A stretch of 64,000 nucleotides of DNA from Candidatus Vogelbacteria bacterium RIFOXYD1_FULL_46_19 (GTDB lineage: Bacteria; Patescibacteriota; Minisyncoccia; Phycocordibacterales; XYD1-FULL-46-19). Each line of letters starts with the position of its first letter. Within the stretch, counting starts at the first letter, position 1. The stretch is from assembly GCA_001824825.1 (NCBI GenBank), contig MHTK01000002.1, forward strand, positions 70,020 through 134,019. The letters are read 5' to 3'. The notes under the pieces are model-generated. The model had not been told where the DNA came from. It did not search any database and worked only from the letters and a program-made list of their open reading frames with translations. Positions 23,843-63,020 of this stretch are shown piece after piece. The translations under genes and the position numbers were made by a program.

Positions 23843-25138
23843 CTACTGGGTAGCCGTGGCTTTACCTCTTTCATAGGCACTTTGGACCTTAAAAAAGGCC
23901 TCCGGGCTTTCCGTAAACACTAAGGTTTTACGGTCTAAAAAGGCGTATAAGGCGATTACTTCCCCAGCGCTGTTTTTAATCACTCGAGTATCAAGGTTGT
24001 TGATTATTTGGTCCTCAAAAGGTTGGAAACGGATAGCGAAAGTATTTTCTGGTGGGGCCAACTTGCCAAACAGGGCGTGAGTGATCAGGCTGCCTTCGCG
24101 CAGCAAAATATCAAAGGTGTGTTCAAAACTGCGGGTCGTGAAAATAAAAATATGGGATTGATTTTGGCCCGGGGCATCATAAACAGCTGTCATAAATTTC
24201 GGTTCTAAAAAGTGAACAAAGTCAGCTGGTAGTCCGAGATTGGCCTGGGCCAGGAAATCTATGACCGGTAGCACCTCGGTTATTTTTCGGCCATCTTCGG
24301 TTGAGGTGGTGGTAGTAAAATAAATATCAATGAGAGATTCGCGGCTAGGGACCCCACGCCAGGCGGTCGCGAGGGCTGACATTATTTCATCTGGGGTTAG
24401 GCCGTCGATAGCAATAACCCGTTGGTCCTCGGCAAACACTAGCGGTACGACCATTTCAGCCTTAACACCGGCCAGACGCTTGGAGTAGACATGATAGGCC
24501 CCATAGGCGACAACCAAGCTACCAGCTAAAAAAGCTAGACCCAACAACCAAACCGCCAGAGATAAGCGAGTTTTTTTACGGGTTGCCGCCGTAGCCCGAG
24601 ACGACTTACTCAATTCTTGTTCTTTAGCCTGCAGGGCAAGCTTGGCTTCACTGGTGCCGGTAGCTCCTAAGTTAGAAAAAATATCAGTTGAAAAAGTACG
24701 CCCTTTGGCCAGTTCAGGGGGCGCGGAAGCTATCGCTGTCATTTCTTTTTTAGCCTCATTGATTTGTTCGCGGTATTTATCCCACTGGCCTGGTGGTGGG
24801 GCGGTAATGGGAATTTCCGGGTGGCCCTTTTGGGCGGCTAAAATTTCCCGCTTTTTTTTAACTATCTCAATTTGTTGCTGACGCAGAAGTTCTTCTCGTT
24901 CTTTTTTCTGGACTAGTTCCCTTTCTCGCCGCCGCTCGGCCCCCTCCATAGCGTGACGGGCTTCACTCCTTTTTTCGTTAAGTTCACCCCCGGCGTTAGT
25001 GGGTCCGCTAGCGTCCCCTACCTCGGTAGAATCAACTGAAAAAAACTGATCAGGTTCAGTTTTTTTTGGTTTCGCCCGACCGGCACTCATGGCTTGCCTG
25101 GCGGCTTGTCTTTTTTGTTCTAAATCGGCGTCGGACAT
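23843..25138 (-). CDS. hypothetical single-pass membrane protein with charged coiled-coil N-terminus
   Basis: 431 aa; K/E/R-rich N-terminal 180 aa, TM LSLAVWLLGLAFLAGSLVVAYGAY, 215-aa C-terminal domain. Confidence 0.5.
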   Translation of the reverse strand: MSDADLEQKRQAARQAMSAGRAKPKKTEPDQFFSVDSTEVGDASGPTNAGGELNEKRSEARHAMEGAERRRERELVQKKEREELLRQQQIEIVKKKREILAAQKGHPEIPITAPPPGQWDKYREQINEAKKEMTAIASAPPELAKGRTFSTDIFSNLGATGTSEAKLALQAKEQELSKSSRATAATRKKTRLSLAVWLLGLAFLAGSLVVAYGAYHVYSKRLAGVKAEMVVPLVFAEDQRVIAIDGLTPDEIMSALATAWRGVPSRESLIDIYFTTTTSTEDGRKITEVLPVIDFLAQANLGLPADFVHFLEPKFMTAVYDAPGQNQSHIFIFTTRSFEHTFDILLREGSLITHALFGKLAPPENTFAIRFQPFEDQIINNLDTRVIKNSAGEVIALYAFLDRKTLVFTESPEAFFKVQSAYERGKATATQ

Positions 25139-25176
25139 AATTTAAATTACTTGACCGTGGGTCGCCTAACTTCGTT

Positions 25177-26436
25177 CTACTTTAACCAAGGAAAAGTTTT
25201 TTTGGCTTCCTTGATTTGTTCTGGCGAGAGTGAACTGCCTTGGCCAGCCACATCTTCTTTAAAAGTGCGAAGTTTAGGTAAGTCGCTGGTTTCGTTTGGC
25301 AAGAAAGGTGGTACGTCTATTTCGTCTTGATTGGTTTTAGAATTTACCCCAGAGATATTTCCCTCAATCTTGACGGCGGAAGCCTCCGGGTCGGGAGTGT
25401 TGCCCGCTTTATTTTCAGTGCCAGTGTTGGGGATACTTATTGTTTCAGCTTTTGGATTGGGATTTGGTTCGGAAGGAGTCGTTGTCTGAGTTGGGGTGGC
25501 CGCGGCTTTAGCTTTTTGTATAGCCTCCTGGCGTTTCATTTCTAGGTCGGCACGTATTTTTTGTTCGAGCGCATTTTTTTGGGCTTGGGCTAAAGCTTGT
25601 TTTTGAACTTCGGCCTGACGCTGTTTTTCGGCGGTAGCCTGCTCGGCCGCCTTCGCTTCATCCTCAGCTTTTTTACGAGCTAAGAGTTCGGCCCGTGCCC
25701 GTTCCCGTTTGTCGGCTTCCAACGCTTCAGCTTCTTGGCGCCGTTTTTGTTCCGCTTCTATTTGTTTAGTTTGTTCGTCTGCCTGTTGACGTTCTTCTTC
25801 CAGTCGTACTTTTTCTTTAGCGGCTTGAACTTCATACTCTAAATTTTCAATTTGTTTATTAATGACATCTTCTTCATCCAAAAGTTTCTGATAGGCATCG
25901 GTATTTTTTTTGAGGTCAGCTTCAATGACCAGAACTTTATTTTCTAGTTCCCATTTACGTTTTTCTAAATCTTTTCTTTTATCTTGAACAGCCCAACGTT
26001 TTTTTTCAAATTGCTGTCGTTCGGTTACATCGCTGGTGGTGTGTTCCTCACCTTCTAAAACGTCTTCTTCTAATTCGATTTTTTCTTCTTCCTGTTTGAT
26101 TGGTGTCAATAGAGTTTCGAGTTCACTTTGTTTGCCGCTCAACACCACCCAGTTGATCTCCAATTTTTCTTTTTGCTTGCCGATGAAACTGAGTTGTTTT
26201 TCCAGTTTTGAATTCTCATCCCTAACTTTTTTTTCAGTTTCTTCTTCCTCACGTTTAACCGTTCGCTCCGGGCCTTCCATGGCGAGTCGGGCGGCTTCTA
26301 GTTTGTCTTTAAAATTTTCCGGTTCGATCGGGTTAGCTGCCGGCTCGTTCGTCGTCGGTGTAGTTGGTTCTGTTGTAACTGGATCGTTCATACTTTGTTC
26401 CCCGTCATTTTTTGGTAAAGTGTTTTCGTCTGACAT
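25177..26436 (-). CDS. hypothetical E/K/Q-rich coiled-coil protein
   Basis: 419 aa, low-complexity charged repeats, T/P-rich N-terminus. Confidence 0.5.
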   Translation of the reverse strand: MSDENTLPKNDGEQSMNDPVTTEPTTPTTNEPAANPIEPENFKDKLEAARLAMEGPERTVKREEEETEKKVRDENSKLEKQLSFIGKQKEKLEINWVVLSGKQSELETLLTPIKQEEEKIELEEDVLEGEEHTTSDVTERQQFEKKRWAVQDKRKDLEKRKWELENKVLVIEADLKKNTDAYQKLLDEEDVINKQIENLEYEVQAAKEKVRLEEERQQADEQTKQIEAEQKRRQEAEALEADKRERARAELLARKKAEDEAKAAEQATAEKQRQAEVQKQALAQAQKNALEQKIRADLEMKRQEAIQKAKAAATPTQTTTPSEPNPNPKAETISIPNTGTENKAGNTPDPEASAVKIEGNISGVNSKTNQDEIDVPPFLPNETSDLPKLRTFKEDVAGQGSSLSPEQIKEAKKTFPWLK

Positions 26437-26535
26437 TGTTTACATTATAAAGATAACGCCGCTCTTATACTAGCGGCGTTATCAATTCTTTTGTGAATTA
26501 CTAGTGAAACAGCTCATCTGTTAAAATTGTGCTTT

Positions 26536-28653
26536 TTAAGCAGTAGTTGATGATGGCTTGATAAAGTCTGGATCTGCTTTTTTAATCGAGAGATTGATGC
26601 GGTTTTGATTATCGATTTCTTTGATGACGACTGGCACTGCTTGCCCGACAGCTAAGTGGTCGCCCACTTTGTCGACGCGGAAGGTGGCAATTTCGGAAAC
26701 ATGCACCAGACCTTCAGTGTCGGGACCAATTTTTACAAAGGCCCCAAAGTCCATTAAGCGTGTAACTGTACCGGTGAAACGTTCACCAGCTTGGTATTCG
26801 TGCGTTAAATCGCTGATGATTTTTTTAGCTTGTTCAGGTCCGTCGCCACGACCGGTAATGAAGACCGTGCCGTCTTCCTCAATATTTATTTCAGCCCCCG
26901 TCTCGTCGCTGATTTTATGAATCATTTTGCCGCCGGGGCCAATTACTAAACCAATTTTCGATACCGGAATAGTAAGGGTGGTAATGCGCGGGGCTGATTC
27001 TTTTAGGGCGGTGCGAGGGGTGGCAATAGCCGCGGTGATTTTGTCTAAAATATGCAGGCGCGCGGCTTTCGCTCCGGCGAGGGCTTCCACTAAAATAGGT
27101 ATCGGTATACCGTCGACTTTAATATCGAGTTGAATTCCGGTGACCCCTTCGGAGGTACCGGCCACTTTAAAGTCCATATCACCATGATGGTCTTCTGGTC
27201 CTTGAATGTCGGTTAACACTTTGTAATTTTTCTCGGTGTCAAAAAACAAACCCATGGCAATCCCGGCGACCGGCCGCGTGATGGGTACCCCACCATCCAT
27301 CAAAGCTAGAGTGGAAGCACAAACTGAACCCATGGACGTGGAACCGTTCGACGCGAGGGCCTCGGATACTAAGCGAATGGTGTAAGGAAAAGTTTCACGG
27401 TTGGGCAACACGGCGACGAGTGATTTTTCGGCGAGTGCCCCGTGGCCAATGGCCCGGCGATTCATCCCACCCAAGCGCCCGGTTTCGCCCACGGAAAATG
27501 GTGGGAAGTTGTAGTGGTGCATGAAGTATTTTTTACCTTGCGTTTCAATGTCTTCAATCAGTTGTGAATCTTGTGGACCGGATAAAGTTAAAACCGACAA
27601 GATGTGGGTGCCGCCACGATAAAAAATTCCGGTGCCGTGGACCACTTCGGTTAGCCCGCCGGCTTGCGCAAAAATCGGCCGCACTTCATCTAAGACGCGA
27701 CCGTCAGCGCGCCGACTGTTAGACAAAGCTTCGGTGTGCAAGACTTCATTAATTTTTTCATCCAAGAATCTAAGACCCTCTCCAACTTGGTCGGGGGCTT
27801 CAGTTTTTAAAATTTCTTTCCAGGTGGCAGCTAGTTCCCCCATTAAACCTTTACCTGGTGTACCGGAAAAAACATGATCGATTAATTTAGGAGCGATATA
27901 CTGGTCAAACAATTTACTAACGATGGCGCTAGTTTCCGGCCAGGTGACCGGGACTTTAGTTTTGCCGACGGCGGCAATAATTTCCGTTTGCCATGATTGT
28001 AGTTTTTCAATTTCTGTTACCGCCTGCTCGAAAGCGCGCGCTAAAATATCTTCTGTCACTTCGCGCGCTTCGGCTTCGATCATGTTAATATTTTTATTTT
28101 TTCCGCAGACCAGTAAGTCGAGTGCCAAGTCACCATTTTCGGTGTTGGCGGGATTGACGGTGAAGTTGGCAAGCTCGCCCGACTTTAGGCCGAGACGGAC
28201 CGCGGACACCGGACCGTTCCACGGAATGTCGGAAGTAGCGAGTGCTAGTGACGCTCCTAAAATGGCCGGCACCGACGGATCGTTTTTGTCATCAATCGAT
28301 AACACGGTGGCAATGACTTGTATCTCTTGGCGCAAGCGGTCGTCGAACAACGGGCGGATAGTGCGGTCGATCATCCGACCAGTGAGCACTGCTTCTTCAC
28401 TTGGTCGGCCTTCTCTTTTTATAAAACGACTGCCTAAAATTTTACCGACGGCGTAAAACTTTTCTTCGTAGTCGACAGTTAGGGGGAAGTAGTCGATATC
28501 GTCGCGACTCTTCACGCCCATCACGGCTGTCACTAAAACGACAGTGTCCCCCAACCGCACCATCACCGAGCCGTTGGCTTGGTCGGCCAAGTCGGAAAAA
28601 GTAGCGGTGAGTTTACTACCTCCCAACTCCGTGGCAAATTCTTTGGTTTGCAT
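26536..28653 (-). CDS. pnp: polyribonucleotide nucleotidyltransferase (PNPase)
   Basis: Two RNase PH domains, KH (GPGGKMIHKI) and S1 domains; start assigned to MQTKEF (internal Met of ORF 26536..28686). Confidence 0.9.
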   Translation of the reverse strand: MQTKEFATELGGSKLTATFSDLADQANGSVMVRLGDTVVLVTAVMGVKSRDDIDYFPLTVDYEEKFYAVGKILGSRFIKREGRPSEEAVLTGRMIDRTIRPLFDDRLRQEIQVIATVLSIDDKNDPSVPAILGASLALATSDIPWNGPVSAVRLGLKSGELANFTVNPANTENGDLALDLLVCGKNKNINMIEAEAREVTEDILARAFEQAVTEIEKLQSWQTEIIAAVGKTKVPVTWPETSAIVSKLFDQYIAPKLIDHVFSGTPGKGLMGELAATWKEILKTEAPDQVGEGLRFLDEKINEVLHTEALSNSRRADGRVLDEVRPIFAQAGGLTEVVHGTGIFYRGGTHILSVLTLSGPQDSQLIEDIETQGKKYFMHHYNFPPFSVGETGRLGGMNRRAIGHGALAEKSLVAVLPNRETFPYTIRLVSEALASNGSTSMGSVCASTLALMDGGVPITRPVAGIAMGLFFDTEKNYKVLTDIQGPEDHHGDMDFKVAGTSEGVTGIQLDIKVDGIPIPILVEALAGAKAARLHILDKITAAIATPRTALKESAPRITTLTIPVSKIGLVIGPGGKMIHKISDETGAEINIEEDGTVFITGRGDGPEQAKKIISDLTHEYQAGERFTGTVTRLMDFGAFVKIGPDTEGLVHVSEIATFRVDKVGDHLAVGQAVPVVIKEIDNQNRINLSIKKADPDFIKPSSTTA

Positions 28654-28859
28654 ATTTAAAATTGGCGCTCGCGGACAGATCGCCAAGTCGAACGGTTGCC
28701 CGTTAGAGTCTGGTTATCTGACCACCAGCAGATTAGGAATAATTGACCATAAATTACCACACCTCCCCCAAAAGAAAAAGCCACATGAAGGACAAAGAAC
28801 TTTTTGGTTCAAGTGCCTAACACCCGGCGGCGGTCTTTGGCATGTGGGGTATGGTTTAG

Positions 28860-30395
28860 TTAAAGATCTTGATTATTTCCGTAGTTAACATTAACTAAGC
28901 CGGGTGAGATTTTCCCATTTATAATATCTAGGACTTTTTCAGTCACCGCTTTAGGTGGGGTGGATAGTTTTTTCAGTTCTTGGCCGTAGGTATTGATGTA
29001 AGCATCTCCGAGGGTAGAAGGGCTGATCAACGGGGTGTTGAGGTAGTAAGCTTCAAATATGTCTTGGTAGTGTCTGTTTATCTCGCTTACTAGTGAAAGC
29101 AGGGCTGAGTTGCTAACACTGTAGTTTATTAAGTGTTTGTGTTTGGCGGTTGGTTTGCCGGCTAGCCAAATTAATTTAATTTTGTGGGTCGGGCGGTTTT
29201 TAAGTAGAGCATTTAGTAATAATAAACTGCCACTAAGTTTGGTCGATATTAAATCTTTAATACCGTTTACGGTTAAATTTTCCAGATCTCCTTTACCGTT
29301 GCCGGGGTCCGCTGAAAAGATTATTACATGGGTATCCGAGGTCTCTTTTAAAAGTGTTTTTACTGAACTTGCGGAATTAATATTACACACTCTTTCATGC
29401 CAAAGTTTTTTACTGACTATTTTGGCTGATCTACTATAAAGCCATACGTCCCACCCTGCATTTTTTAGCTGGTTACCAATAGTTCTCCCTAAAGAATATT
29501 TTTTGGTTCCAGCTACTAATACTTTTGGGGTGTATCCTTTATGGGCGGTTATAAATGCCCAACCAATTTTTTTGCTTTTAACTGCACTTACTATACTTAA
29601 GTACCGGTTTTTTAGATCCCGCTCTGCTCGGCTTGGGTTGGCTACAATTTCATCCATTTGGTGAGCAAGTTTTTTGTAGGTATTTACCATATCTTCATTT
29701 TTTTGTTCAATTTTTATGTTTGAAAAAGATAGTCGTTTTAAGATTCTTTTGTAGGTAGCTGAAGATAACCCGTTGTCCCAATTAACCAGTTCTTTTATAA
29801 GTTGGGCTTCATTATTGTTTAAACTTTTGGTGGTCTCGTTTGATAAAAAGTCGGCTATAACCATAACTCCACCCGGGGCCATTAGTTCATACAAATTAGA
29901 AAATAGTTTTGATTTATTGGGTATCAAAAAAATTGCGTCTTGGCTAATAATGTGAGTAATAGTATTTTTTTGTTTAGCGAGTTTTTTGTCTATGTTGGAG
30001 GCTCTACTTCTGATAAAGCTTATATCTAGAATTCCAGCTGTTAAATTTGACGGTTTACTGTTAATTAATTTTATTTTTTTGTTGGCTTCTTTAATCATCT
30101 CATCACTAATATCTACTCCAATACCTTTGCAGTGATATTTTAAACAAATATCAATTAATGTTTGACCAGTGCCACAACCAATATCTAAAACGACAGAGCG
30201 CGAGTCTAGTGTTCTGGATGTGTTAACTTTGTTTATTAAGTGTTCTGTTGCGTTTAAGAATGACTTACTTAATGAATCATTTTTCGACGAAAACAAACCA
30301 ACGTGCAGGGTGTGATGTTTGGGATCCCACGTTTTGTCGTAATGTTTTTTTAGGGAGTTAAATTTTTTTCTAGTTTTTTCCTCGGTGGTTATCAT
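28860..30395 (-). CDS. fusion protein: class I SAM-dependent methyltransferase (CFA-synthase-like) + Rossmann NAD(P)-binding domain
   Basis: N-term HYDKTWDP...VLDIGCGTGQTLIDI motif I; C-term KVLVAGTKKYSLGRTIGNQL dinucleotide-binding-like; AT-rich codon usage distinct from flanks. Confidence 0.65.
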   Translation of the reverse strand: MITTEEKTRKKFNSLKKHYDKTWDPKHHTLHVGLFSSKNDSLSKSFLNATEHLINKVNTSRTLDSRSVVLDIGCGTGQTLIDICLKYHCKGIGVDISDEMIKEANKKIKLINSKPSNLTAGILDISFIRSRASNIDKKLAKQKNTITHIISQDAIFLIPNKSKLFSNLYELMAPGGVMVIADFLSNETTKSLNNNEAQLIKELVNWDNGLSSATYKRILKRLSFSNIKIEQKNEDMVNTYKKLAHQMDEIVANPSRAERDLKNRYLSIVSAVKSKKIGWAFITAHKGYTPKVLVAGTKKYSLGRTIGNQLKNAGWDVWLYSRSAKIVSKKLWHERVCNINSASSVKTLLKETSDTHVIIFSADPGNGKGDLENLTVNGIKDLISTKLSGSLLLLNALLKNRPTHKIKLIWLAGKPTAKHKHLINYSVSNSALLSLVSEINRHYQDIFEAYYLNTPLISPSTLGDAYINTYGQELKKLSTPPKAVTEKVLDIINGKISPGLVNVNYGNNQDL

Positions 30396-30407
30396 AATAG
30401 TCTAAAA

Positions 30408-31877
30408 TTAGATGTTATTTTTAAGTAGGTAGTCGACCATATTTCCTAATAATTTATAGGTTTTTACTCTAATTGATTCTTGGGTTTTCCACCCCGCTCT
30501 GTAAGTTAAGATGTGATTACTTAATTCGTGGCTAATTTTCCAATCAGTTTTATCTCTTATTGGTAAACCAAGTATATCTTTTCGTGGTAAACCTGGATAA
30601 ACGTCTAGAAAGGCTAATATATTGTTATTTATCATTTGGCTGGTCAGGGCTTGTTGATCAATAGCGTTTCCGTCTGCTGTATTTATAACAATTACTCCAG
30701 GTTTCATTTTTAGAATAAGTTTCTCGTTTAATGTGTTTTCAGCGTGGTGTGCCGGAAGATTGATTGAAATAATGTCCGCAATCTCAGACATTTTTTCAAG
30801 GGTTGAATACTTTATGCCAAGAGTCTTCTCCAGGTCGACTTTTCTTGTTTTAGAATAATAAATGACCTTAAAACCCATTCCGGTGGCTATTTTCGCCACT
30901 AAAAATCCAATTCTTCCCAACCCTACTATTCCGAACGTTTTACCGTTGAATGAATAAGTACTGGAAACAAGATTGCTAACATCTACGAGTTTATCTCCAA
31001 AGAGTATTTGAGATTTATTAAGATCAAATAAGTTAATATTTTTTGCCTCATAAAATATTATTTCGTTATCGGTTAAAAACTTAAAGTAACTCGCCAGTGT
31101 AGATTCGGTAAGTTGATATTGCTCGCAAATAACTCCAAGGGCCGTTAATCTTTCTATGGTAACGTTTAAGCCTTGCATATTAAGGAATCCAACTTTCCTA
31201 TTTTGGAGGAGTTTTTCTGGAATTAGGTCTTCCATATTTCTTTCGCTGAAGTCGAATTTTACTTGTCCTATTTTGTGAAAATGATGGACAAATTTACCGC
31301 GCCTAGTATTTTTTTCGTTACTTGAAAGTTTTCGGAAAAATCCAAATAAGTGATTAATAATAGTGTGCGATACCTCTTCTTGGTTTTTGGTCGAAGTGAA
31401 AGTGGTGGGGAAGTTTCTGGTGATTAATGAGAACAAACCAGCAAATACCACTTCTGAAACTGACTCCGTACCGTAGTCCGGGATATTAGTCACTTCTATA
31501 CCTAGTTTTTTAGCTAAAAGGGTGTTGATTCGATGCTCCTTTTCGTGGGTCCAAAAGATAACTAGTTTTAATTGGGGGTTCAATTTTAATATTTCATCCG
31601 GTATGTTGGTCCAACAACTAATAATAACGTCTGCACCCTCGACCCTACTCATTAGTAATTGAAGAGGAATGTTGTCGGTGGCAATTTCGGTGTAACACTT
31701 TTTACCTGTAAATACCCCCGGGTTATTCTCGTAGTCTTTTTCTAGACTTGCTGGGAGACTGGAGGGGTATTCTATTACCTCACGCGAAATACTGTTCAGA
31801 AGTTTTCGATGCTCGGGATAAAAGATTACCGTGTCTAGAATTACCACTTTATTAAATTTTTTGGCTAGGTTGATCAT
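30408..31877 (-). CDS. D-isomer-specific 2-hydroxyacid dehydrogenase family protein with ~150-aa insertion between catalytic and NAD-binding domains
   Basis: N-terminal catalytic-domain pattern (ADVIISCW...LKLVIFWT...GIEVTNIPDY...SVSEVVF) and NAD-binding GIVGLGRIGFLVAK separated by unmatched segment. Confidence 0.65.
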   Translation of the reverse strand: MINLAKKFNKVVILDTVIFYPEHRKLLNSISREVIEYPSSLPASLEKDYENNPGVFTGKKCYTEIATDNIPLQLLMSRVEGADVIISCWTNIPDEILKLNPQLKLVIFWTHEKEHRINTLLAKKLGIEVTNIPDYGTESVSEVVFAGLFSLITRNFPTTFTSTKNQEEVSHTIINHLFGFFRKLSSNEKNTRRGKFVHHFHKIGQVKFDFSERNMEDLIPEKLLQNRKVGFLNMQGLNVTIERLTALGVICEQYQLTESTLASYFKFLTDNEIIFYEAKNINLFDLNKSQILFGDKLVDVSNLVSSTYSFNGKTFGIVGLGRIGFLVAKIATGMGFKVIYYSKTRKVDLEKTLGIKYSTLEKMSEIADIISINLPAHHAENTLNEKLILKMKPGVIVINTADGNAIDQQALTSQMINNNILAFLDVYPGLPRKDILGLPIRDKTDWKISHELSNHILTYRAGWKTQESIRVKTYKLLGNMVDYLLKNNI

Positions 31878-32007
31878 AGGATATATATAACATAAACATA
31901 CACTATAGTCAAGTAAATAGTCTTAAGATTGTTGTAAATTATAAAAGATGTATAATATTTATATACACTTTTGATTAAAATAAGCTAGATATATCTATAT
32001 TTTTCGT

Positions 32008-32790
32008 ATGAATGATAAAAATTCCTTTTCTCCAGATTTTTACACTTCGTTAAGTGAATTAGGGTTATCTCAGTTGGAAATTAACTTGTATACAATATCT
32101 CTACAGCTTGGCCCAAGCCCCATTTCTCTACTTGCAAAGTATATGGGTATCTCTCGACCGAATGTTTATAAGGTTATAGAGGGGTTACGAGACAAAGGTC
32201 TTGCTTCATTTTACGGTCAGGAAAAGTATGCTAGAAAATTTATGGTTGAATCACCTTCAATTGTTCTTGAAAAGTTGAGAAAAAAAGGAGAGTTGTTGAA
32301 GGGCTTGGACGGTAGTTTAACGGCTTCCCTGCCTGATTTGTTGGCCTTTTATCAGCAAGGAGGTAAAGACACTAAGATAAAAGTAATTAAAAATCAGGAC
32401 CAGTTTTTAAAAATTTTCCATCAGTCTTTGGAAGAGACCCGAGTTGGTGGAATGATGGAATTTTTTGGTTCGGCTAGTGATTTTATTAGTTTTGTCGGTT
32501 GGCAAACCGAACGGGAATGGATTAAAGGTCGTTTAAAGAAGAAAATATCTATCCGGACTTTAGTTTCTCCCGATAAAGATGCGGCCACCTTAAGAGTGGG
32601 GCAGGAGAAGGAGTTAAGAGAAGTGAGACTTTATAACGGAGAAGCCAACTTCCCTACTTCCTTTTTGATTTACGGTAATAAGCTGGTAATTTGGCAACCC
32701 AAAGCTCCACTAGCGGTATCTATTGAGGATGAGTATATGGCAGTTATGTTTAAGAGTATATTTTATACTTTGTGGGAAAAGTCGAAGTAG
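32008..32790 (+). CDS. TrmB-family HTH transcriptional regulator
   Basis: N-terminal LGLSQLEINLYTISLQLGPSPISLLAKYMGISRPNVYKVIEGLRDKGLAS typical TrmB wHTH. Confidence 0.65.
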   Translation: MNDKNSFSPDFYTSLSELGLSQLEINLYTISLQLGPSPISLLAKYMGISRPNVYKVIEGLRDKGLASFYGQEKYARKFMVESPSIVLEKLRKKGELLKGLDGSLTASLPDLLAFYQQGGKDTKIKVIKNQDQFLKIFHQSLEETRVGGMMEFFGSASDFISFVGWQTEREWIKGRLKKKISIRTLVSPDKDAATLRVGQEKELREVRLYNGEANFPTSFLIYGNKLVIWQPKAPLAVSIEDEYMAVMFKSIFYTLWEKSK

Positions 32791-32871
32791 ATAATTACCA
32801 CACCTCCCCCAAAAGAAAAAGGTTCTTCTTGAGTTTGATTAAATAATCAATAGCACTTAATATTAAGAAAT

Positions 32872-33246
32872 ATGAAACCTAAATTTGAAAAAGGTTTTCC
32901 TTTATCTAATAAAAGTGAAACATTGCCTGAGTCGGACATTGCTCGCTATTGGAAGAGAATGGGTTTTTCTTTTAGCTCACCCAAGCCAGGTAGTCCGGCG
33001 GAGGCGAGATTGAGGGAGGCTTGTGAAAGTTATAGTCGTTTTATTGTGAACCCAAGTTTAAGAGGGGCTACTGGAAGTGAGGGCCGTCGCCGCCAGCTTC
33101 ACAATGAAATTTCCATAATGACTGTCGGTGAACCAAGAAGTGGGATGGAAAGTGAGAAGGCAGAAAAAATAGCGGATTTTGCCTGCTTGGTGGCCACCGG
33201 CTTAACCGCCGCTGAGCTTCTTAAAGATGAGATGAGTCGTAATTAA
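32872..33246 (+). CDS. hypothetical protein
   Basis: 124-aa ORF, no motif recognised. Confidence 0.35.
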   Translation: MKPKFEKGFPLSNKSETLPESDIARYWKRMGFSFSSPKPGSPAEARLREACESYSRFIVNPSLRGATGSEGRRRQLHNEISIMTVGEPRSGMESEKAEKIADFACLVATGLTAAELLKDEMSRN

Positions 33247-33284
33247 AGAAAAAATTAAGGCCAGCACTGGAGAGTGCTGGCCAA

Positions 33285-33500
33285 CTAGAGCAGGCTGGTG
33301 GTAATACAGTGAAACTTTTTACCCAGAGCTAGTGCTTCGTGGTGGTAAACATCGTCACCCCCGCGAATTTGATTTTTGCAAACTAATTGCCCTCCGGCTT
33401 TGATTAAGTCTTGAATCTCTTGTCTGCTAGCAGTATAGACTGGGCGATTTTCTTCCCAACCCTCGGTGATTTTTTTCACCAATACTTCGAGTTTTTCCAC
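33285..33500 (-). CDS. hypothetical small protein
   Basis: 71-aa ORF. Confidence 0.3.
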   Translation of the reverse strand: MEKLEVLVKKITEGWEENRPVYTASRQEIQDLIKAGGQLVCKNQIRGGDDVYHHEALALGKKFHCITTSLL

Positions 33501-33579
33501 GGAGCCTCCTTTTTACTATTAGCCAAATTCAAGAATAGCACGTTACTAAACTATTGTCAAATATTAGCAGAGTGAGCTT

Positions 33580-34137
33580 TTAGATAGCTTTGAGGGCTTT
33601 CTTTCCCGCGCGGCGGCCGTTACCATTGCGACCATAAATGAGGAATTTTTTTGGCTCCTTATCGAGATCGATAAAATCGTCCACTGACTCCTTCAAGCGC
33701 GAGGAAGAACTGCGACCAAAAGACACAGCTTCCACCTGGCAACCCATATTGGTTTGGAGGTATTCGACCAGGGGTACAAAGTCGCCATCGCCAGAGGCGA
33801 TGATCACTGCGTCTAACTTAGGCGCCATAGAAATGGCGTCGACCGCGAGACCTACGTCCCAGTCGGCTTTTTTGGCACCACCTAGAAATATTTGCAAATC
33901 TTTAGTTTTAACCTCAATCCCGATTTTATGCAAAGCCTCAAAAAAAGGCTGTTCTTCCCCGCTTTCCGTGGTCACGACGTAGGCGCGGGCTCTAATTAGG
34001 TTGCGATCCCCGACGGCTGCTTCCAAAATGGCGCCAAAGTTAACTCGAGCGTTGTATAGATTTTTGGCGGAGTGATAAAGATTTTGGGTATCAATAAATA
34101 CCCCAACTCGTTGGTTTTTATGCTTAATTACGGGCAT
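33580..34137 (-). CDS. NYN-domain (LabA-like) protein
   Basis: VGVFIDTQNLYHSAKNLYNARVNFGAIL and IIASGDGDFVPLVEYLQ characteristic of NYN/PIN-like fold. Confidence 0.7.
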   Translation of the reverse strand: MPVIKHKNQRVGVFIDTQNLYHSAKNLYNARVNFGAILEAAVGDRNLIRARAYVVTTESGEEQPFFEALHKIGIEVKTKDLQIFLGGAKKADWDVGLAVDAISMAPKLDAVIIASGDGDFVPLVEYLQTNMGCQVEAVSFGRSSSSRLKESVDDFIDLDKEPKKFLIYGRNGNGRRAGKKALKAI

Positions 34138-34227
34138 ATAACTTATATAAAATTAAAGAAACTAGTATTAAATAAAATTCTACCTCAGTTCTCGCACTTC
34201 TAACTTAAGAAAAAGTTGATCAGGGGA

Positions 34228-34250
34228 AGAAAAAAGGCCTAGGCGGCCTC
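34228..34250 (-). terminator. putative terminator overlapping rpsO stop
   Basis: aggcc-taggc-ggcct hairpin followed on minus strand by T6. Confidence 0.35.
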
Positions 34251-34490
34251 TTTCTTGCTCTCTGCCTTCTTGGCTTTGGTGTCCAAATATTTTTGATGGG
34301 CTCGGCGTTTGGCTACCAATTTAAGCAAACCACGGCGAGAGTGATGATCTTTGTTATGGGTCTTTAGATGGTCCGACAGTTCGGTGATGCGTTCATTTAA
34401 CAGGGCAATTTGCACTTCCGAAGAGCCAGTATCGGTCTCGTGTTTGGCCGTCTTTTTGATCACACTAACTTTTTTCTTAGTCGTAAGCAT
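34239..34490 (-). CDS. rpsO: 30S ribosomal protein S15
   Basis: [42 protein letters not shown] is the S15 signature; start at internal Met MLTTKKK. Confidence 0.9.
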
Positions 34491-34906
34491 AGGGCTATAG
34501 TAGCATAAAAGAGTTATTTTTGCAAGTAAACCGTACATAATTAGCTTAGGTAAAATAAAGGCCGATCCAGTTTGGGTATAGGGGAGGCTGGAGCGGCCTT
34601 ACTCATTGCTGTGCTGTGTAGACCTTTTTTGTCCGGTGTTAGGTGACTGGAAGGTATACGCTTTGAGTATTCCTATTTTACCTTTATTGGTTAGGCTTGT
34701 CAATCCCCCTCATATGGAATGATTCCGCTGACTGGTACCCCCAGGTTTCTCTGCGCTCAAAAGAGCAAAGCCATTCCATGTTTTTTTTGGGGGGGGTGTA
34801 CACCCCCCTGTAAATGTGCTCTAGGAGGGTCCTTAGAGTGGTAGTTTGTCTTGAAGTTGTAATATTGTGCGACTCTTTCTATACTGAATCAACAAAACTA
34901 CTAAAT

Positions 34907-35818
34907 ATGAAACTCATTGAACAACAGAAGCAAGAATTTCTCGACTACTTAGAGATTGAAAAGGGGCGGAGCTTGAAGACTCGCAGTAGTTATGATCGCT
35001 ATTTAAGCCTTTTTTTTAAGCAAACGAAAATCTCGTCCCCGACTGATATTGATGAGAATCTACTTAGAGAGTTTCGTTTGTGGTTGAATCGCCAGCCCGG
35101 TACGACCGGCACCTTGAAAAAAAATACCCAAAATTATTATTTAATTGCTCTTAGAACTTTTTTGAAGTACTTGGCGAGGCGGGGTGTTCCTTCCCTCTCG
35201 CCAGAGCGGATTGAACTGGCTAAAACGCCTGGTCGGGAGATTGATCTCTTAAATGAGGTGGAACTCGGCCGGCTACTTACTATGCCGGCCGACCAAGACG
35301 AAAAAAGTTTGAGAGATAAGGCTATTTTGGAGCTATTGTTTTCGACCGGCCTTCGGGTGTCCGAGTTAACCGGCTTAAACCGTGATTCCATTGACTTGTC
35401 TCGCGACGAGTTTAGTGTGCGAGGGAAGGGTGAAAAAGTGCGGCTGGTATTTTTGTCGCTCGACGCCAAAGAAGCTATTAAGACTTATTTAAAAAAACGA
35501 GTTGATATTGAAGAGGCTCTATTTGTGAGTTTAAAAAATAAAGTCGGTGATGCTCCGACTCGCCTCACTTCTCGTAGTGTGGAAAGAATAGTGAAGTTTT
35601 ACGCTACGAAGGCGGGTATTGGCAGTAAGGTTACCCCGCACACCATTAGGCATAGTTTTGCGACTGACCTCTTACAAAATGGGGCTGATATCCGCTCGGT
35701 GCAAGCTATGTTGGGCCACTCGAGCGTGGCCACTACCCAAATATATACTCACGTGACCGACAAGCACTTACGAGAGATTCATCAGAAATTTCACAATCGT
35801 AAAAATACTGGCTCTTAA
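34907..35818 (+). CDS. tyrosine site-specific recombinase, XerC/XerD family
   Basis: N-terminal FLDYLEIEKGRSLKTRSSYDRYL core-binding domain and C-terminal HTIRHSFATDLLQNGADIRSVQAMLGHSSVATTQIYTHV (R..H..R...Y); start at MKLIEQQKQ. Confidence 0.85.
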   Translation: MKLIEQQKQEFLDYLEIEKGRSLKTRSSYDRYLSLFFKQTKISSPTDIDENLLREFRLWLNRQPGTTGTLKKNTQNYYLIALRTFLKYLARRGVPSLSPERIELAKTPGREIDLLNEVELGRLLTMPADQDEKSLRDKAILELLFSTGLRVSELTGLNRDSIDLSRDEFSVRGKGEKVRLVFLSLDAKEAIKTYLKKRVDIEEALFVSLKNKVGDAPTRLTSRSVERIVKFYATKAGIGSKVTPHTIRHSFATDLLQNGADIRSVQAMLGHSSVATTQIYTHVTDKHLREIHQKFHNRKNTGS

Positions 35819-36072
35819 TTTTTGAAAAAGTGGATAACTTTTAGGGAGGAAAAAGGTTTGGTGGTTGTGTCCGATAAGGGCCTAGCACTTATCCACAACC
35901 AATTCCTTGTCCTATACTCTGTCTGATAGTAAGATAAGCCTAGGTCTGATTTGGTCTTATCGAAATGTCCTATAGGTCGGTTTCCCCTTGATATTTTTTC
36001 TCCTCATTCAAGGCGAGCTCCTCATTTTTTCACTTGGATCTCTATGGATCCCAACCTGTTTGACACTTTCAA

Positions 36073-36107
36073 CCCCGCCATAACCAGTGCGGGGTTTAGT
36101 TTTTTTG
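36073..36107 (+). terminator. intrinsic terminator between xer and cca (convergent)
   Basis: ccccgc-cataaccagt-gcgggg hairpin then tttagttttttt. Confidence 0.45.
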
Positions 36108-36139
36108 TTTTCCGCTTTTTCCTATTTTTACTACACCCC

Positions 36140-37612
36140 CTACTTGACACCGTGACGCTGACGAATTTTTTTTAGCTCCTTATTCTCGGTCTCACTCTTT
36201 TTTTCTTTACCTTGGGCGGCTAGTTTGGCTAATTCTTTATCCCCCAATTCATTAAGATCTTTAGCTCGGTTTAATAAGTATTCCTTGGTATTTTGGGTGG
36301 GCTCGTCGAGTACCTCTTCCAATAGAGCATGCAAAATTTGCCCGATTTGGGGACCAGGTTTCACGTGCAACTCGTTCATTAAGTCATTCCCGTCAATTTT
36401 TAGCATAGTGACCGAGGTGGGGCTACGCAAGGCCTCTTCAATCATCGATTCGTATTTTCTCAAGCGATAAGGGTGTTCCTTGGGCCGGCCCATACCGATT
36501 CGGTCGCTGGTGCGTAGCTTCATCAAGTCCCAGACATTGTTCTCCCCCACTTTGGCTATAATTCGGCGGACGGCTGACAAGGTAATTTGATCAACATCCA
36601 CAAAAAACATATGGTTTCTAACCAGTTTTTCCACCACCTCGGCAGTTTTAGACGGGTATTTTAGGTCGGCCATAATTTTCTGTACCAGTCGCGCTCCCAC
36701 TACCTCATGACCGTAAAAGGTCCAGTCATTTTTCTCTTTAATCCAGCGCCTGGTGGCTGGTTTACCAATGTCATGAAACAGAGCCGCTAGACGTAGGTGA
36801 AGGGGGAAGTCTCTCTCAGCGGCGTGTTGCAAAGCTCGGAGCGAGTGTTCCCAGACATCAAAGATATGATCCCCGTTTTGCTCAGTGCCGATTGCTGGTA
36901 CTAAGTCGGGTAAAACGTGCGGTAAAAGTTCAAGCTTGGAGATAAGCTGTAGACCCATCATTGGTCTTTTAGACATAATAATCTTGTTAAATTCTTCACG
37001 CAGTCTTTCTTTAGAAATCCGTCCGAGTAAGCCCGCCTCTGCCTCGATGGCTTGCTCAGTCACCGGGTCAATACTAAAGCCTAGCTCGGTAGCCAAGCGG
37101 ACAGCCCTAAGCAGGCGCAAGGCATCTTCGCGGAAGCGCTCGGTGGGTGAGCCGACGGTTTTGATGATCTTGTCCTTTATATCAGCTACTCCCCCAAACA
37201 GATCAATAAGTTGTCCTTTATCAAGATTATAGGCTAGGGCATTAATGGTGAAGTCGCGACGAGCTAAATCATCTTCTATCGATTCGGCAAAGTGGACTTG
37301 ATCTGGGTGGCGGTGGTCAGTGTACTCAGATTCAGTGCGGTATGGAGTAACCTCGACATTTTTTAAAGTTGGGTCATCGGTGTCCTCATTCACGATTGTG
37401 ACTGTGCCGAAGCGGTTTTCGTAAAAAGTCTTAGTAAATAAGGCCTCAATCTCAGAGGGAGTGGCTTTGGTAGTAATATCCCAGTCTTTAGGTTCGCGGT
37501 TCATTAGGCTGTCACGAACACAGCCTCCCACAATAAAAGCCTCAAAACCAGCATTTTCCAGGGTTTTGGTTATACGTGAAACTTCTTTTGGGACTGGTAA
37601 CGATATTTTCAT
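36140..37612 (-). CDS. cca: CCA-adding tRNA nucleotidyltransferase with HD domain
   Basis: GGCVRDSLM...DWDITT polymerase-beta motif, RRDFTINA, HD motif FHDIGK; start at MKISLP (ORF 5' extension overlaps tRNA-Arg). Confidence 0.85.
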   Translation of the reverse strand: MKISLPVPKEVSRITKTLENAGFEAFIVGGCVRDSLMNREPKDWDITTKATPSEIEALFTKTFYENRFGTVTIVNEDTDDPTLKNVEVTPYRTESEYTDHRHPDQVHFAESIEDDLARRDFTINALAYNLDKGQLIDLFGGVADIKDKIIKTVGSPTERFREDALRLLRAVRLATELGFSIDPVTEQAIEAEAGLLGRISKERLREEFNKIIMSKRPMMGLQLISKLELLPHVLPDLVPAIGTEQNGDHIFDVWEHSLRALQHAAERDFPLHLRLAALFHDIGKPATRRWIKEKNDWTFYGHEVVGARLVQKIMADLKYPSKTAEVVEKLVRNHMFFVDVDQITLSAVRRIIAKVGENNVWDLMKLRTSDRIGMGRPKEHPYRLRKYESMIEEALRSPTSVTMLKIDGNDLMNELHVKPGPQIGQILHALLEEVLDEPTQNTKEYLLNRAKDLNELGDKELAKLAAQGKEKKSETENKELKKIRQRHGVK

Positions 37613-61532: not shown

Positions 61533-63020
61533 ATGAAGCTAAAACTTATTGTAATCATAGTTGTAAGTCTGATGACACTGGGGTTTGGAGTTGGTTCGAC
61601 CTTAGCTCAGACCGTACCGCCTATTTGTAACCGTAATTTTCCCAATGAGTTAACGAAAAATTTGTTTGAAAATCCAGTGGGGTGTGCTTGTAGTAACAGT
61701 GCAACAAATCCATCTTTTTATCCTGGTTATAATCATCGAATTTTTACTTATTATGAATGGCCAGCGGGAACAGTCTGGGGGCCTTCTATGTATTGTCGAT
61801 ACCCCGGGGACCCGTTTAATCCACCTAGTACTGCCGTGGGCAAGGTTGAATATTGTGCGGATTTAGACGAGGGCCGATTTTGGTGGAGGAGTTCTTTGCA
61901 ACAGTATTATACTGGGCACTTACAAGGGAGGTACGCTTCCTTGCTTGATTTTGCTGCCATTAAACAAAGAAACGGCCCAAATGTCCCCGAAAATCAACGT
62001 CAAGAATTTTTATTTTGTGAAGGGAACGATTGGCATGAGTGTAGCACTAATCAAAACTGTGCCTATCAGCCCAAAGGGTATGGTCATAGTGAAGCTACTA
62101 GTAAATGTTTGGTAAATAAATACTCTCCGCCCGGCCGAAAAACTTGCCACTTTTTAAAAGATATTAAATTAGACGGTATTACTGTTTCTTCCCCTAAAGC
62201 CAGGGTTATATTTTTAGTGGACGCCACAGGCCGGCGGGACACTTTTGATGCAGCCGCGGTGGCTAAAACATTGGCGACAGCCGTGGCTAATACTGAACCA
62301 TTTAAGACTGTGCAACAAGAAAAGGGCTCAATTCAATTTTTATATATTGCGGGGGACATTGGCTCACAAATACCACCTCGGGAATTTGTTAAAAGTCATG
62401 ATGAAAGATGGACAATCAGTGATGGAGCACGGGACGATATTGAAAAATATATGAAGAAAATTGCTGGACAGGTAACTAATCAAAAGACTGTAATGGTTTT
62501 TATCGATGCTTCAATGAATAAACCTAGTCAGAACCCGGATGATATCATTGCTTTTGGGGGCGTACAGTTTGTTTATATGCCTTACTCGGCAAATTCTTTT
62601 GACAATAAAACGACAATAGTTCATGAGTTGGGCCATTCGCTATTTGATTTAAGTGACGAATATTCTTATCTAGAGGGTGGATTAGATCGATCTCATTATA
62701 GTTTAGGTCTAAATGTTATATCACAAATTTCTGTGTATGGCGTTAGGGGGTTTATATGTCATAAATTTGATGATTACAGTCTTAAATGGCCTAATTGCTA
62801 CGGTATAGGCTCTAATCAAGAAACCCATGAAGGCTTGACTGTGTGGAAATCGACCCAAAACAGTGTAATGAACGATCCGTGGGAGGAGGATAGATATAAT
62901 GTTATTAGTTGTGCCAGCATTCTGCGAGAACTGGGTTATGAAAGTGATTTAAATAAGGCAGTTAGAAAGTGTCAAACACCGCCTATATCCTTAGGAATAA
63001 TTCAAAATGAAAATCAATAA
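61533..63020 (+). CDS. secreted Cys-rich zinc metallopeptidase-like protein (HEXXH)
   Basis: Signal peptide, many Cys in N-terminal half, TTIVHELGHSLFDLSDEY zinc-binding motif; AT-rich codon usage. Confidence 0.6.
   Translation: MKLKLIVIIVVSLMTLGFGVGSTLAQTVPPICNRNFPNELTKNLFENPVGCACSNSATNPSFYPGYNHRIFTYYEWPAGTVWGPSMYCRYPGDPFNPPSTAVGKVEYCADLDEGRFWWRSSLQQYYTGHLQGRYASLLDFAAIKQRNGPNVPENQRQEFLFCEGNDWHECSTNQNCAYQPKGYGHSEATSKCLVNKYSPPGRKTCHFLKDIKLDGITVSSPKARVIFLVDATGRRDTFDAAAVAKTLATAVANTEPFKTVQQEKGSIQFLYIAGDIGSQIPPREFVKSHDERWTISDGARDDIEKYMKKIAGQVTNQKTVMVFIDASMNKPSQNPDDIIAFGGVQFVYMPYSANSFDNKTTIVHELGHSLFDLSDEYSYLEGGLDRSHYSLGLNVISQISVYGVRGFICHKFDDYSLKWPNCYGIGSNQETHEGLTVWKSTQNSVMNDPWEEDRYNVISCASILRELGYESDLNKAVRKCQTPPISLGIIQNENQ

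Follow-up and report, generated by a model that had tools for sequence, protein, structure and literature searches.

The 64,000-nt stretch of Candidatus Vogelbacteria bacterium RIFOXYD1_FULL_46_19 analysed here (the window; contig MHTK01000002.1 of GCA_001824825.1, positions 70,020-134,019 of the forward strand) contains an AT-rich islet of three genes at 28752-32821, just upstream of pnp. We consider it likely that this islet is a horizontally acquired, integrase-less unit of 4.04 kb carrying a self-regulated module that is distributed patchily among ultra-small organisms, namely Candidate Phyla Radiation (CPR) bacteria and DPANN archaea, and that the module combines NADPH-dependent redox chemistry with S-adenosylmethionine (SAM)-dependent methylation of a small metabolite. 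On the minus strand it encodes a methyltransferase fused to an atypical short-chain dehydrogenase/reductase-like NAD(P) domain (MT-SDR, 511 aa, 28860..30395) and a putatively NADP(H)-binding protein with the fold of 2-hydroxyacid dehydrogenases (HADH-like, 489 aa, 30408..31877); a TrmB-family winged-helix regulator (260 aa, 32008..32790, plus strand) is divergent from this operon. Proteins identical to these carry the same source name, a CPR organism (Parcubacteria/Paceibacteria) from Rifle groundwater. An earlier note on this DNA had called the same three open reading frames (ORFs) and their domains, and had read them as an acquired cassette or a three-gene system. Acquisition is now strongly supported by a 29-bp flanking repeat, by the absence of the genes from all 80 relatives compared and by the presence of the module in unrelated contexts, and the three-gene reading is supported by its recurrence in CPR and DPANN.

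A perfect 29-bp direct repeat, AATTACCACACCTCCCCCAAAAGAAAAAG, brackets exactly the three islet genes as an att-like junction. Its left copy (28752..28780) lies 99 bp upstream of the pnp start codon, its right copy (32793..32821) begins 3 bp past the TrmB stop codon, and the inserted unit is 4041 bp long. These two copies are the only ones in the 64 kb even when 3 mismatches are allowed, with 0 expected by chance. Because the source is a metagenome-assembled genome, one might suspect a chimeric join that created both the repeat and the jump in composition. However, both repeat copies are found in all same-population contigs that span both cassette ends, and the identical junctions and gene order recur in contigs from at least five independent samples/assemblers (ENA SPAdes and MEGAHIT, JGI, Logan), which excludes an assembly artefact and leaves that explanation with practically no credence.

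The islet also stands out in base composition, as the earlier note had remarked. Its ORFs have GC contents of 0.359, 0.361 and 0.382, the three lowest among the 55 ORFs of at least 100 aa in the window (window mean 0.4545). Taken as one 4041-bp segment the islet has a GC of 0.361, against a mean of 0.462 (sd 0.019, minimum 0.412) for 207 other segments of that length (z = -5.4), and its tetranucleotide distance (z = +7.8) exceeds that of every other such segment; both deviations are significant. The GC trough spans ~29100 to 32900, and the codon-usage distances of the three genes have z scores of 1.6 to 2.9.

The state of the locus before insertion can be approached through 80 species-level relatives, retrieved via polynucleotide phosphorylase (PNPase, the pnp product; 54-61% identity) and mapped for flanking genes. 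An NYN-domain gene precedes pnp in 71 of the 80, and in 66 the order is rpsO-NYN-pnp, which we take as the ancestral block because so many relatives keep it. The earlier note had supposed that rpsO and pnp are normally adjacent and that a spacer of about 5.5 kb had come between them here. The islet does separate them (rpsO to pnp is 5.6 kb in the window) and the first ~4 kb of the spacer is foreign, but the conserved order includes the NYN gene, the NYN-pnp gap is itself variable, and the inserted unit is the 4.04 kb alone; the rest of the interval holds the NYN-domain gene and two small ORFs. Relatives have NYN-pnp gaps of 380 bp at the median and 1387 bp at the 75th percentile, with a maximum of 3725 bp, against 4927 bp in the window, and subtracting the 4041-bp unit leaves 886 bp, an ordinary value for relatives.

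None of the 80 relatives carries the cassette genes at the pnp locus, including all 54 with at least 5 kb of sequence upstream of pnp. The two findings that the earlier note would have counted against acquisition, the same genes at this place in relatives and an unexceptional composition, are both contradicted by the data. It could be argued that the islet is nonetheless ancestral and vertically inherited, no more than a locally AT-rich part of the Vogelbacteria chromosome since lost from its relatives. In favour of this, relatives differ in their NYN-pnp gap, which holds assorted genes, and the comparison lacked close relatives (>61% PNPase identity). That reading has to contend with absence from every relative, with a repeat placed around exactly three genes of strongly deviating composition, and with the presence of the module in unrelated contexts in other phyla and in archaea, and we regard it as very improbable. 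The larger gaps of relatives hold a PIF1 helicase, a DUF475/TerC protein, a HAD hydrolase, an S49 peptidase, an LpxC-like protein or another TrmB-family gene, all of them unrelated cargo of host-like GC, so that the NYN-pnp site tolerates accessory genes. The DUF475/TerC-family membrane protein occupies the gap in Kaiserbacteria-like relatives (L062:7970-9793; also L058, L060, L066, L086, L088 and L089), with a divergent TrmB-family partner in L062 and a PIF1-like helicase alongside in L086 and L088.

Homologues of the two enzymes often co-occur on the same contigs, and the full arrangement TrmB(-)/HADH-like(+)/MT-SDR(+) is found in three unrelated settings beyond the window genome: next to thrS in an Uhrbacteria genome, amid sugar and O-antigen genes in a further Patescibacterium, and on a 1.08-Mb contig (L015) 1.3 kb from a Xer gene and ~4 kb from that genome's own intact rpsO-NYN-pnp block. 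A metagenome scan yielded 70 loci in three tiers. Tier 1 (n=24, 49-63% identity) contains the same cassette, in which the MT and SDR are at times separate genes, order-swapped, or without the SDR (the MT lacks an SDR half in cassettes L098, L113 and L114). Tier 2 (n=9, 37-40% identity) has the permuted order TrmB/MT-SDR/HADH-like and includes Woesearchaeota; tier-2 proteins of Woesearchaeota and Parcubacteria are 59% identical, equal to the identity between two Woesearchaeota proteins. The conserved core in CPR and DPANN comprises a winged-helix regulator, the HADH-like protein and the MT, usually with the SDR as well. At six loci a tandem AsnC/Lrp-type helix-turn-helix protein takes TrmB's divergent position, and the SDR there is separate and classical; we read the AsnC-type protein as a regulator from its position, having also considered a siroheme-decarboxylase-like enzyme. 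A second divergent TrmB-family gene lies directly upstream of the L015 cassette (L015:1100-5574); it is paired with genes for a B12-binding radical-SAM enzyme, a member of the choline/aminoglycoside kinase family and a 260-aa protein without assigned function, so that two TrmB-controlled modules seemingly lie side by side.

Cassettes elsewhere also bear marks of insertion. They are usually 0.01-0.11 lower in GC than their flanks, and the closest ones (L096-L098, 62-63% identity) have a GC of 0.355-0.362 within flanks of 0.44-0.47. Tight flanking direct repeats of at least 12 bp surround 4 of 22 cassettes compared with 2.4% of 288 control gene blocks, and repeats of at least 17 bp surround 2/22 cassettes and 0/288 control blocks; the lengths are 29 bp in the window, 17 bp in L121, 14 bp in L113 and 12 bp in L013. 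At L120 a perfect 75-bp GC-rich direct repeat (22-96 and 2683-2757) surrounds an AT-rich segment (GC 0.356 vs 0.464) with a tier-2 HADH-like gene and small ORFs, an arrangement that resembles another insertion signature.

We hypothesize that the islet entered the pnp leader by recombination across the 29-bp core, which would have duplicated the core at both junctions and split the lineage-conserved rpsO-NYN-pnp block, and that its cargo circulates among CPR bacteria and DPANN archaea. The predicted empty-site junction, on the minus (pnp-coding) strand, would read ...CAAGAAGAAC + CTTTTTCTTTTGGGGGAGGTGTGGTAATT + TATGGTCAATTATTCC..., and the predicted circular or excised junction, on the plus strand with the islet ends joined, would read ...GAAAAGTCGAAGTAGAT + AATTACCACACCTCCCCCAAAAGAAAAAG + CCACATGAAGGAC.... 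In its odd composition, perfect direct repeat, absence from relatives, accessory cargo with a regulator and lack of an integrase, the islet resembles att-flanked genomic islands, including integrase-less elements that are mobilised in trans, with IMEX-type elements as the closest concept; it differs from them in having no tRNA or dif-like target, no dyad in its core and no identified vehicle or recombinase, and in its very small size (4 kb). No tRNA occurs within 3.5 kb of the islet, and its target is neither a tRNA/tmRNA nor a dif site. A viral vehicle was considered and rejected, since IMG/VR contains no HADH-like relative and no copy of the att core.

Several observations weigh against acquisition in this form. 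Neither an empty site nor a circular junction was found in the population, where a search with the identical PNPase and NYN proteins returned only islet-bearing contigs. None of the three islet genes is a recombinase or integrase by Pfam, and inspection of the 29-bp core revealed no dif-type dyad symmetry. Flanking repeats at other cassettes, 12-75 bp in length, show no sequence relationship, so that the cassettes have no att core in common. The closest cassette homologues are only 49-63% identical, too distant to point to a donor; had the insertion happened long enough ago to account for such divergence, amelioration of its GC would be expected by now, unless the true donor has not been sampled. 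It may be, then, that transformed or circularised DNA was taken into the chromosome by illegitimate, microhomology-mediated or homologous recombination and not by a dedicated site-specific recombinase, the repeats being by-products rather than att sites. The missing integrase, the differing repeats elsewhere (12, 14, 17, 29 and 75 bp) and the failure to find a viral or other vehicle are all consistent with this. On the other side, a perfect 29-bp duplication is long for microhomology, and a Xer-family tyrosine recombinase gene (34814-35818) lies 2 kb from the islet, the corresponding distance to the cassette in L015 being 1.3 kb, though it is a conserved housekeeping copy in relatives; 51 of the 80 likewise have a divergent Xer gene upstream, mostly preceded by a gene for a CCA-adding enzyme. 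Non-site-specific arrival is a possibility that we take seriously while doubting it, and recombination across the core remains our preferred account of how the islet came to stand where it does.

The central enzyme of the module is the HADH-like protein. Pfam detects 2-Hacid_dh_C (PF02826, 2.4e-30) and 2-Hacid_dh (PF00389, 1.3e-8), with the two domains split by an insert, as the earlier note had described. An AlphaFold2 model (pLDDT 90.6) has as its best Foldseek match the Pyrococcus horikoshii glyoxylate reductase 2dbq (TM-score 0.69 normalised to the target, TMt, and 0.49 to the query, TMq; 18% identity), and 2dbq, 1wwk and 5tx7 are all matched at a Foldseek probability of 1.0. Relative to the P. 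horikoshii enzyme the insert is ~125 aa (query 151-307 vs 115-145) rather than the ~150 aa first estimated, and is alpha/beta in structure. Foldseek found no solved-structure counterpart for it or for an N-terminal extension of ~36 aa (TMq ~0.5). A search with the insert alone gave 7 matches among 1.84 billion representatives, of which five (P0066, P0153, P0167, P0168 and P0169) are members or fragments of the HADH-like family itself, the weakest two (P0180 and P0181) being left out. NCBIfam scores are all far below cutoffs.

Alignment with canonical 2-hydroxyacid dehydrogenases indicates that the catalytic residues of that family have been lost: the carboxylate-binding Arg is replaced by D402 ('INTADGN'), the Glu by L430 ('YPGLP') and the catalytic His by R460 ('YRAGW'). 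The loss holds in all three tiers, with Val at the Arg position in tier 3. The earlier note's functional label of 2-hydroxyacid dehydrogenase is therefore unsuitable, the catalytic triad being absent. The cofactor site is intact, with G316, G319 and G321 of the GxGxxG motif (GIVGLGRIG) invariant in 97 sequences, and the motif YYSKTRK after beta-B, matching that of the NADP-bound P. horikoshii glyoxylate reductase, suggests use of NADP(H). Across these 97 sequences, at 38-63% identity, ~48 positions are invariant (including H23, C88, H111, E112, H115, R116, H198, H201, K202, D402 and R460), and the new invariant motifs CWT, WTHExEHR, HHFHK and YRAGWKT have appeared, His-rich loops among them. 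In canonical structures (GRHPR, D-lactate dehydrogenase (D-LDH)) the 'vGxDxiD' loop lines the substrate pocket, and it is here that WTHExEHR sits; as new motifs replace the loops of the pocket, the site seems to have been rebuilt rather than to have decayed. Compared with known 2-hydroxyacid dehydrogenases (PH0597/2dbq, PHGDH, D-LDH, CtBP), then, the protein shares the two-domain fold (TMt ~0.7), the GxGxxG motif and, with 2dbq, the YYS(K/R)TRK motif, and differs in its low identity (14-19%), in Asp/Leu/Arg for Arg/Glu/His, in the WTHExEHR loop, and in both the insert and the N-terminal extension.

In the MT-SDR fusion the methyltransferase (~1-287), of the class-I type that acts on small molecules, is matched at residues 60-230 by Pfam Methyltransf_31/23/25/11/12 and CMAS, and the SDR-like domain covers ~288-511 (AlphaFold2 pLDDT 86.8 for the whole protein). 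The best fold match of the MT half is the sarcosine/dimethylglycine methyltransferase (SDMT) 2o57 (TMt 0.86, rmsd 3.1 Å), followed by PfPMT, AtmM and RebM at TMt 0.7-0.8 and then by cyclopropane fatty acid (CFA) synthases, with mycolic-acid synthases also among the matches. SAM motifs are complete, with L70, D71, G73, C74, G75, G77 and D95 invariant. Like the clade of SDMT and phosphoethanolamine methyltransferase (PMT; 2o57 and 3uj6, and including RebM and the CFA/mycolic-acid synthases), the MT half has the class-I fold, the N-terminal 'YYDxxWD...H(T)LHVGxF' lid, motif I as LDxGCGxG and an acidic residue ending beta-2; it differs from them in its identity of 13-23%, in reaching no equivalog threshold and in being fused to an SDR-like domain. 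No NCBIfam equivalog (ArsM, SDMT, BioC, UbiE etc.) claims it, the best score being 58 bits against a cutoff of 240 and the rest lying far below cutoffs. The top NCBIfam names suggest arsenic methylation, but membership was rejected, each score falling short of its cutoff by a factor of 4-10.

The Rossmann half that the earlier note assigned to NAD(P) binding is present and, judged from its motifs, is an atypical SDR. It is recognisable only by profile, matching the SDR chains 6jh7 and 9cly at E = 1e-6, and weak adh_short matches are on record for its homologues. Its cofactor motif is an AGTKxKSIGR variant of TGxxxGxG, in which G296 is invariant and the second Gly is replaced by Ser, and an invariant Y425...N429 replaces YxxxK, so that the catalytic Lys is absent.

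The functional half of our proposal meets difficulties of its own: neither redox domain, HADH-like or SDR-like, retains its canonical catalytic residues, which makes catalysis by them no more than putative, and no experimental or literature support was found for any substrate. The two domains might instead lack catalytic activity and, in the manner of CtBP or NmrA, sense NAD(P)(H) or serve as scaffolds, tuning the MT as the sole enzyme. Loss of the Arg/Glu/His triad in all tiers, YxxxN in place of YxxxK, and the cassettes whose MT has no SDR half would fit such a role. It accounts poorly for ~48 invariant positions in the HADH-like protein and for new motifs that replace exactly the loops of the substrate pocket, and in tier 3 the protein travels with classical SDRs and radical-SAM enzymes much as a pathway enzyme would; we consider the sensing role improbable. 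Nor is it easy to cast the cassette as a remodeller of scavenged lipids, in which a CFA-synthase-like methylenation followed by the fused reductase would yield a methyl branch, as in tuberculostearic-acid synthesis. CPR bacteria depend on host lipids, Pfam gives a CMAS match (1.1e-8) and CFA and mycolic-acid synthases are among the fold matches, but in fold and in sequence alike the MT comes closest to SDMT and PMT, which are soluble N-methyltransferases, rather than to CFA synthases, its surroundings show no conserved membrane segments or lipid genes, and the HADH-like partner is left unexplained, which makes this a distinctly doubtful alternative.

We retain an active role, in which the HADH-like protein would carry out NADPH-dependent redox chemistry on a non-carboxylate small metabolite, coupled to methylation, the module as a whole providing an inducible two-step or three-step tailoring of that metabolite. 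An amine or a compound derived from an amino acid is hinted at as substrate by the Asp in place of Arg, by the MT's likeness to N-methyltransferases and by the alternative regulator of Lrp type, and the substrate possibly bears an amine or a phospho-base. For the cell-surface modification proposed in the earlier note we found no specific support. An anti-phage defence system was also considered and rejected: PADLOC reports no complete system, its sole match being a generic one of the MT core to mad2, with none for the other islet proteins.

Control of the module appears to be built into the islet. The regulator scores 39.8 bits with Pfam TrmB (PF01978), whose cutoff is 25.6; matches to it extend to all 16 cassette regulators, and a profile of the 16 aligns end to end with TrmBL2 (5box; 19-257 vs 14-260, E = 1.2e-5). 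The C-terminal sugar-binding domain of the TrmB/TrmBL1 type was not detected in a protein of 260 aa only, which scores 20-25 bits with the NCBIfam models for TrmB/TrmBL1, where the cutoffs are 600-650. A TrmB gene adjoins the operon in 13 tier-1 and 4 tier-2 loci. In the divergent intergenic region (31878..32007), where the earlier note had proposed looking for an operator, lies the perfect palindrome TGTATA-N7-TATACA (31949..31967), the sole perfect match in the window (0.10 expected at up to 1 mismatch). It is kept in register in 10 of 10 cassette intergenic regions, where the encoded proteins are just 40-60% identical, and it occurs exactly once per locus in 26 cassette loci and in none of the 80 pnp loci or the tier-3 loci.

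On the TrmB side a perfect TATAAT (31951-31956, plus strand) falls within the left arm of the palindrome. On the other side a candidate promoter for the HADH-like/MT-SDR operon (31884..31912, minus strand) consists of TTGACT (31912-31907), 17 nt and TATATA (31889-31884), with the -10 box stopping 6 nt short of the ATG; its spacer contains an operator half-site, GTGTATG (31903-31897), and TTGAC and the half-site G are invariant across 10 aligned cassettes. The candidate operator is most likely bound by the regulator. Overlap with its own -10 box would then give autorepression, and binding to the half-site in the spacer would occlude the operon promoter, so that the TrmBL2-like protein would hold the operon off until a ligand is present. 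TrmB-type regulators of Thermococcales act at palindromic operators such as the TGM motif TATCAC-N5-GTGATA. The islet regulator resembles TrmBL2/TrmB of that group (PDB 5box and 3qph) in its TrmB winged helix, full-length alignment to TrmBL2, size of ~260 aa and palindromic 6-N-6 candidate operator overlapping promoters, and differs in its CPR bacterial host, in the operator sequence and in serving one adjacent operon rather than acting globally or in a chromatin-like way.

The most distant relatives of the HADH-like protein (tier 3, 30-34% identity) occur in Streptomyces, Kibdelosporangium, Pyrinomonadaceae and Microgenomates as part of a larger, likewise uncharacterised operon next to a full thrS (L142:6566-14878 and L140:6069-16978; similarly L136, L139, L141, L143, L149 and L160). 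This operon encodes a radical-SAM protein with a SPASM domain, the HADH-like protein, a second radical-SAM enzyme, a classical SDR and a truncated paralogue of threonyl-tRNA synthetase (ThrRS), to which some loci add HemN-like and B12-binding radical-SAM enzymes. It has in common with the islet the remodelled HADH-like subfamily (WTHxxEHR, YRxGW and loss of Arg/Glu/His), the pairing with an SDR and the presence of methyl- or radical-transfer enzymes; in contrast, tier 3 has a shorter insert, radical-SAM enzymes in place of the SAM methyltransferase, no TrmB genes and no palindrome. A thrS link for the CPR cassette was rejected, as ThrRS or ThrRS-like neighbours are confined to tier-3 operons apart from 1 of 24 tier-1 loci, and we treat the adjacency of cassette and thrS in Uhrbacteria as coincidence, since clustering ties ThrRS neighbours to tier 3. 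Searches of the literature turned up no relevant work on islets in CPR genomes, on this cassette or on the operon of tier 3.

The host side of the left junction is formed by pnp (26536..28653, minus strand; Pfam RNase_PH x2, KH, S1) and its leader (28654-28751, minus strand). The leader contains a long, stable hairpin at ~28666-28730 on the minus strand, and the 217-nt leader region folds at z = -3.3; it is reminiscent of enterobacterial pnp leaders, in which an RNase III-processed stem is autoregulatory. Between the MT-SDR stop codon and the left repeat is an islet tail of 79 bp (28781..28859, minus strand) with a weak hairpin, CCACAUG...CAUGUGG, followed by a U-tract within the repeat; in isolation this hairpin folds no better than shuffles (z = -0.75). 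No convincing minus-strand intrinsic terminator was predicted between MT-SDR and pnp, and read-through into pnp may therefore be possible. Directly downstream of pnp (23843-26436, minus strand) are two Glu/Lys/Gln-rich low-complexity proteins of 431 and 419 aa without Pfam matches, weak homologues of which (20-40% identity) occur at the same position in many relatives.

Beyond the right junction, two small ORFs at 32872-33500, o124 (124 aa, plus strand) and o71 (71 aa, minus strand), converge on a strong hairpin terminator (33259..33282, minus strand; a 10-bp stem with 7 GC pairs and a T-run) that ends the rpsO-NYN-o71 unit ahead of the islet. Neither ORF has a Pfam or NCBIfam match, nor a tblastn match in any of the 80 relatives; both are excluded from the islet by their host-like GC and their position outside the 29-bp repeat. 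They are followed by the NYN-domain gene (33580-34137) and rpsO (34239-34490), both on the minus strand and identified by Pfam. The NYN gene encodes a LabA-like putative RNase, and rpsO-NYN-pnp can be seen as an RNA-metabolism block in the 66 relatives that keep it. An Rfam scan of 26000-36500 recovered no RNA family, its only match being sub-threshold and on the terminator hairpin. Two further ORFs of lower GC in the window, at 3962-6562 (minus strand, 0.408) and 61533-63020 (plus strand, 0.401), the latter also the strongest codon-usage outlier among host genes, may be further acquired genes.

Among genomic islands the islet represents a familiar type. The cassette and the enzyme family at its centre have yet to be characterised, and public records mis-annotate them, listing members of the HADH-like family as 'lactate dehydrogenase-like 2-hydroxyacid dehydrogenase', 'glyoxylate reductase' or 'NAD(P)-dependent oxidoreductase'. 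It is probably an error to count these proteins as fermentative D-lactate or glyoxylate reductases when metabolism is reconstructed from CPR and DPANN genomes, and the remodelled pocket, kept from Streptomyces to Woesearchaeota, points to an undescribed reaction. For the host, the insertion has cut pnp off from rpsO and NYN and may have left it behind a foreign operon that is itself regulated. To our knowledge, clear and mechanistically legible recent horizontal acquisitions are uncommon in small streamlined CPR genomes, and with its exact junctions, its defined cargo, the operator and promoters predicted for it and its spread over both CPR and DPANN, the islet offers a tractable model for the movement of accessory metabolism among episymbionts.

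One could go further, on a view we put forward as speculation that may well not hold, and see in the cassette a small, self-regulated, integrase-less metabolic element that hops between CPR and DPANN episymbionts and so crosses from bacteria to archaea or back, with the HADH-like protein founding a new enzyme class that has turned the 2-hydroxyacid dehydrogenase scaffold and its NADPH site to chemistry on a non-carboxylate substrate, possibly with the assistance of a metal held by its new His/Cys cluster. If so, the same HADH-like chemistry would be coupled to SAM methylation in CPR and to radical-SAM enzymes and a ThrRS paralogue in actinobacterial operons, and the metabolite produced might be one that is traded with the host cell or scavenged from it. 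Independently of that view, the tier-3 operon of Streptomyces, a culturable organism, could open a way into the chemistry of the enzyme that both operons share.

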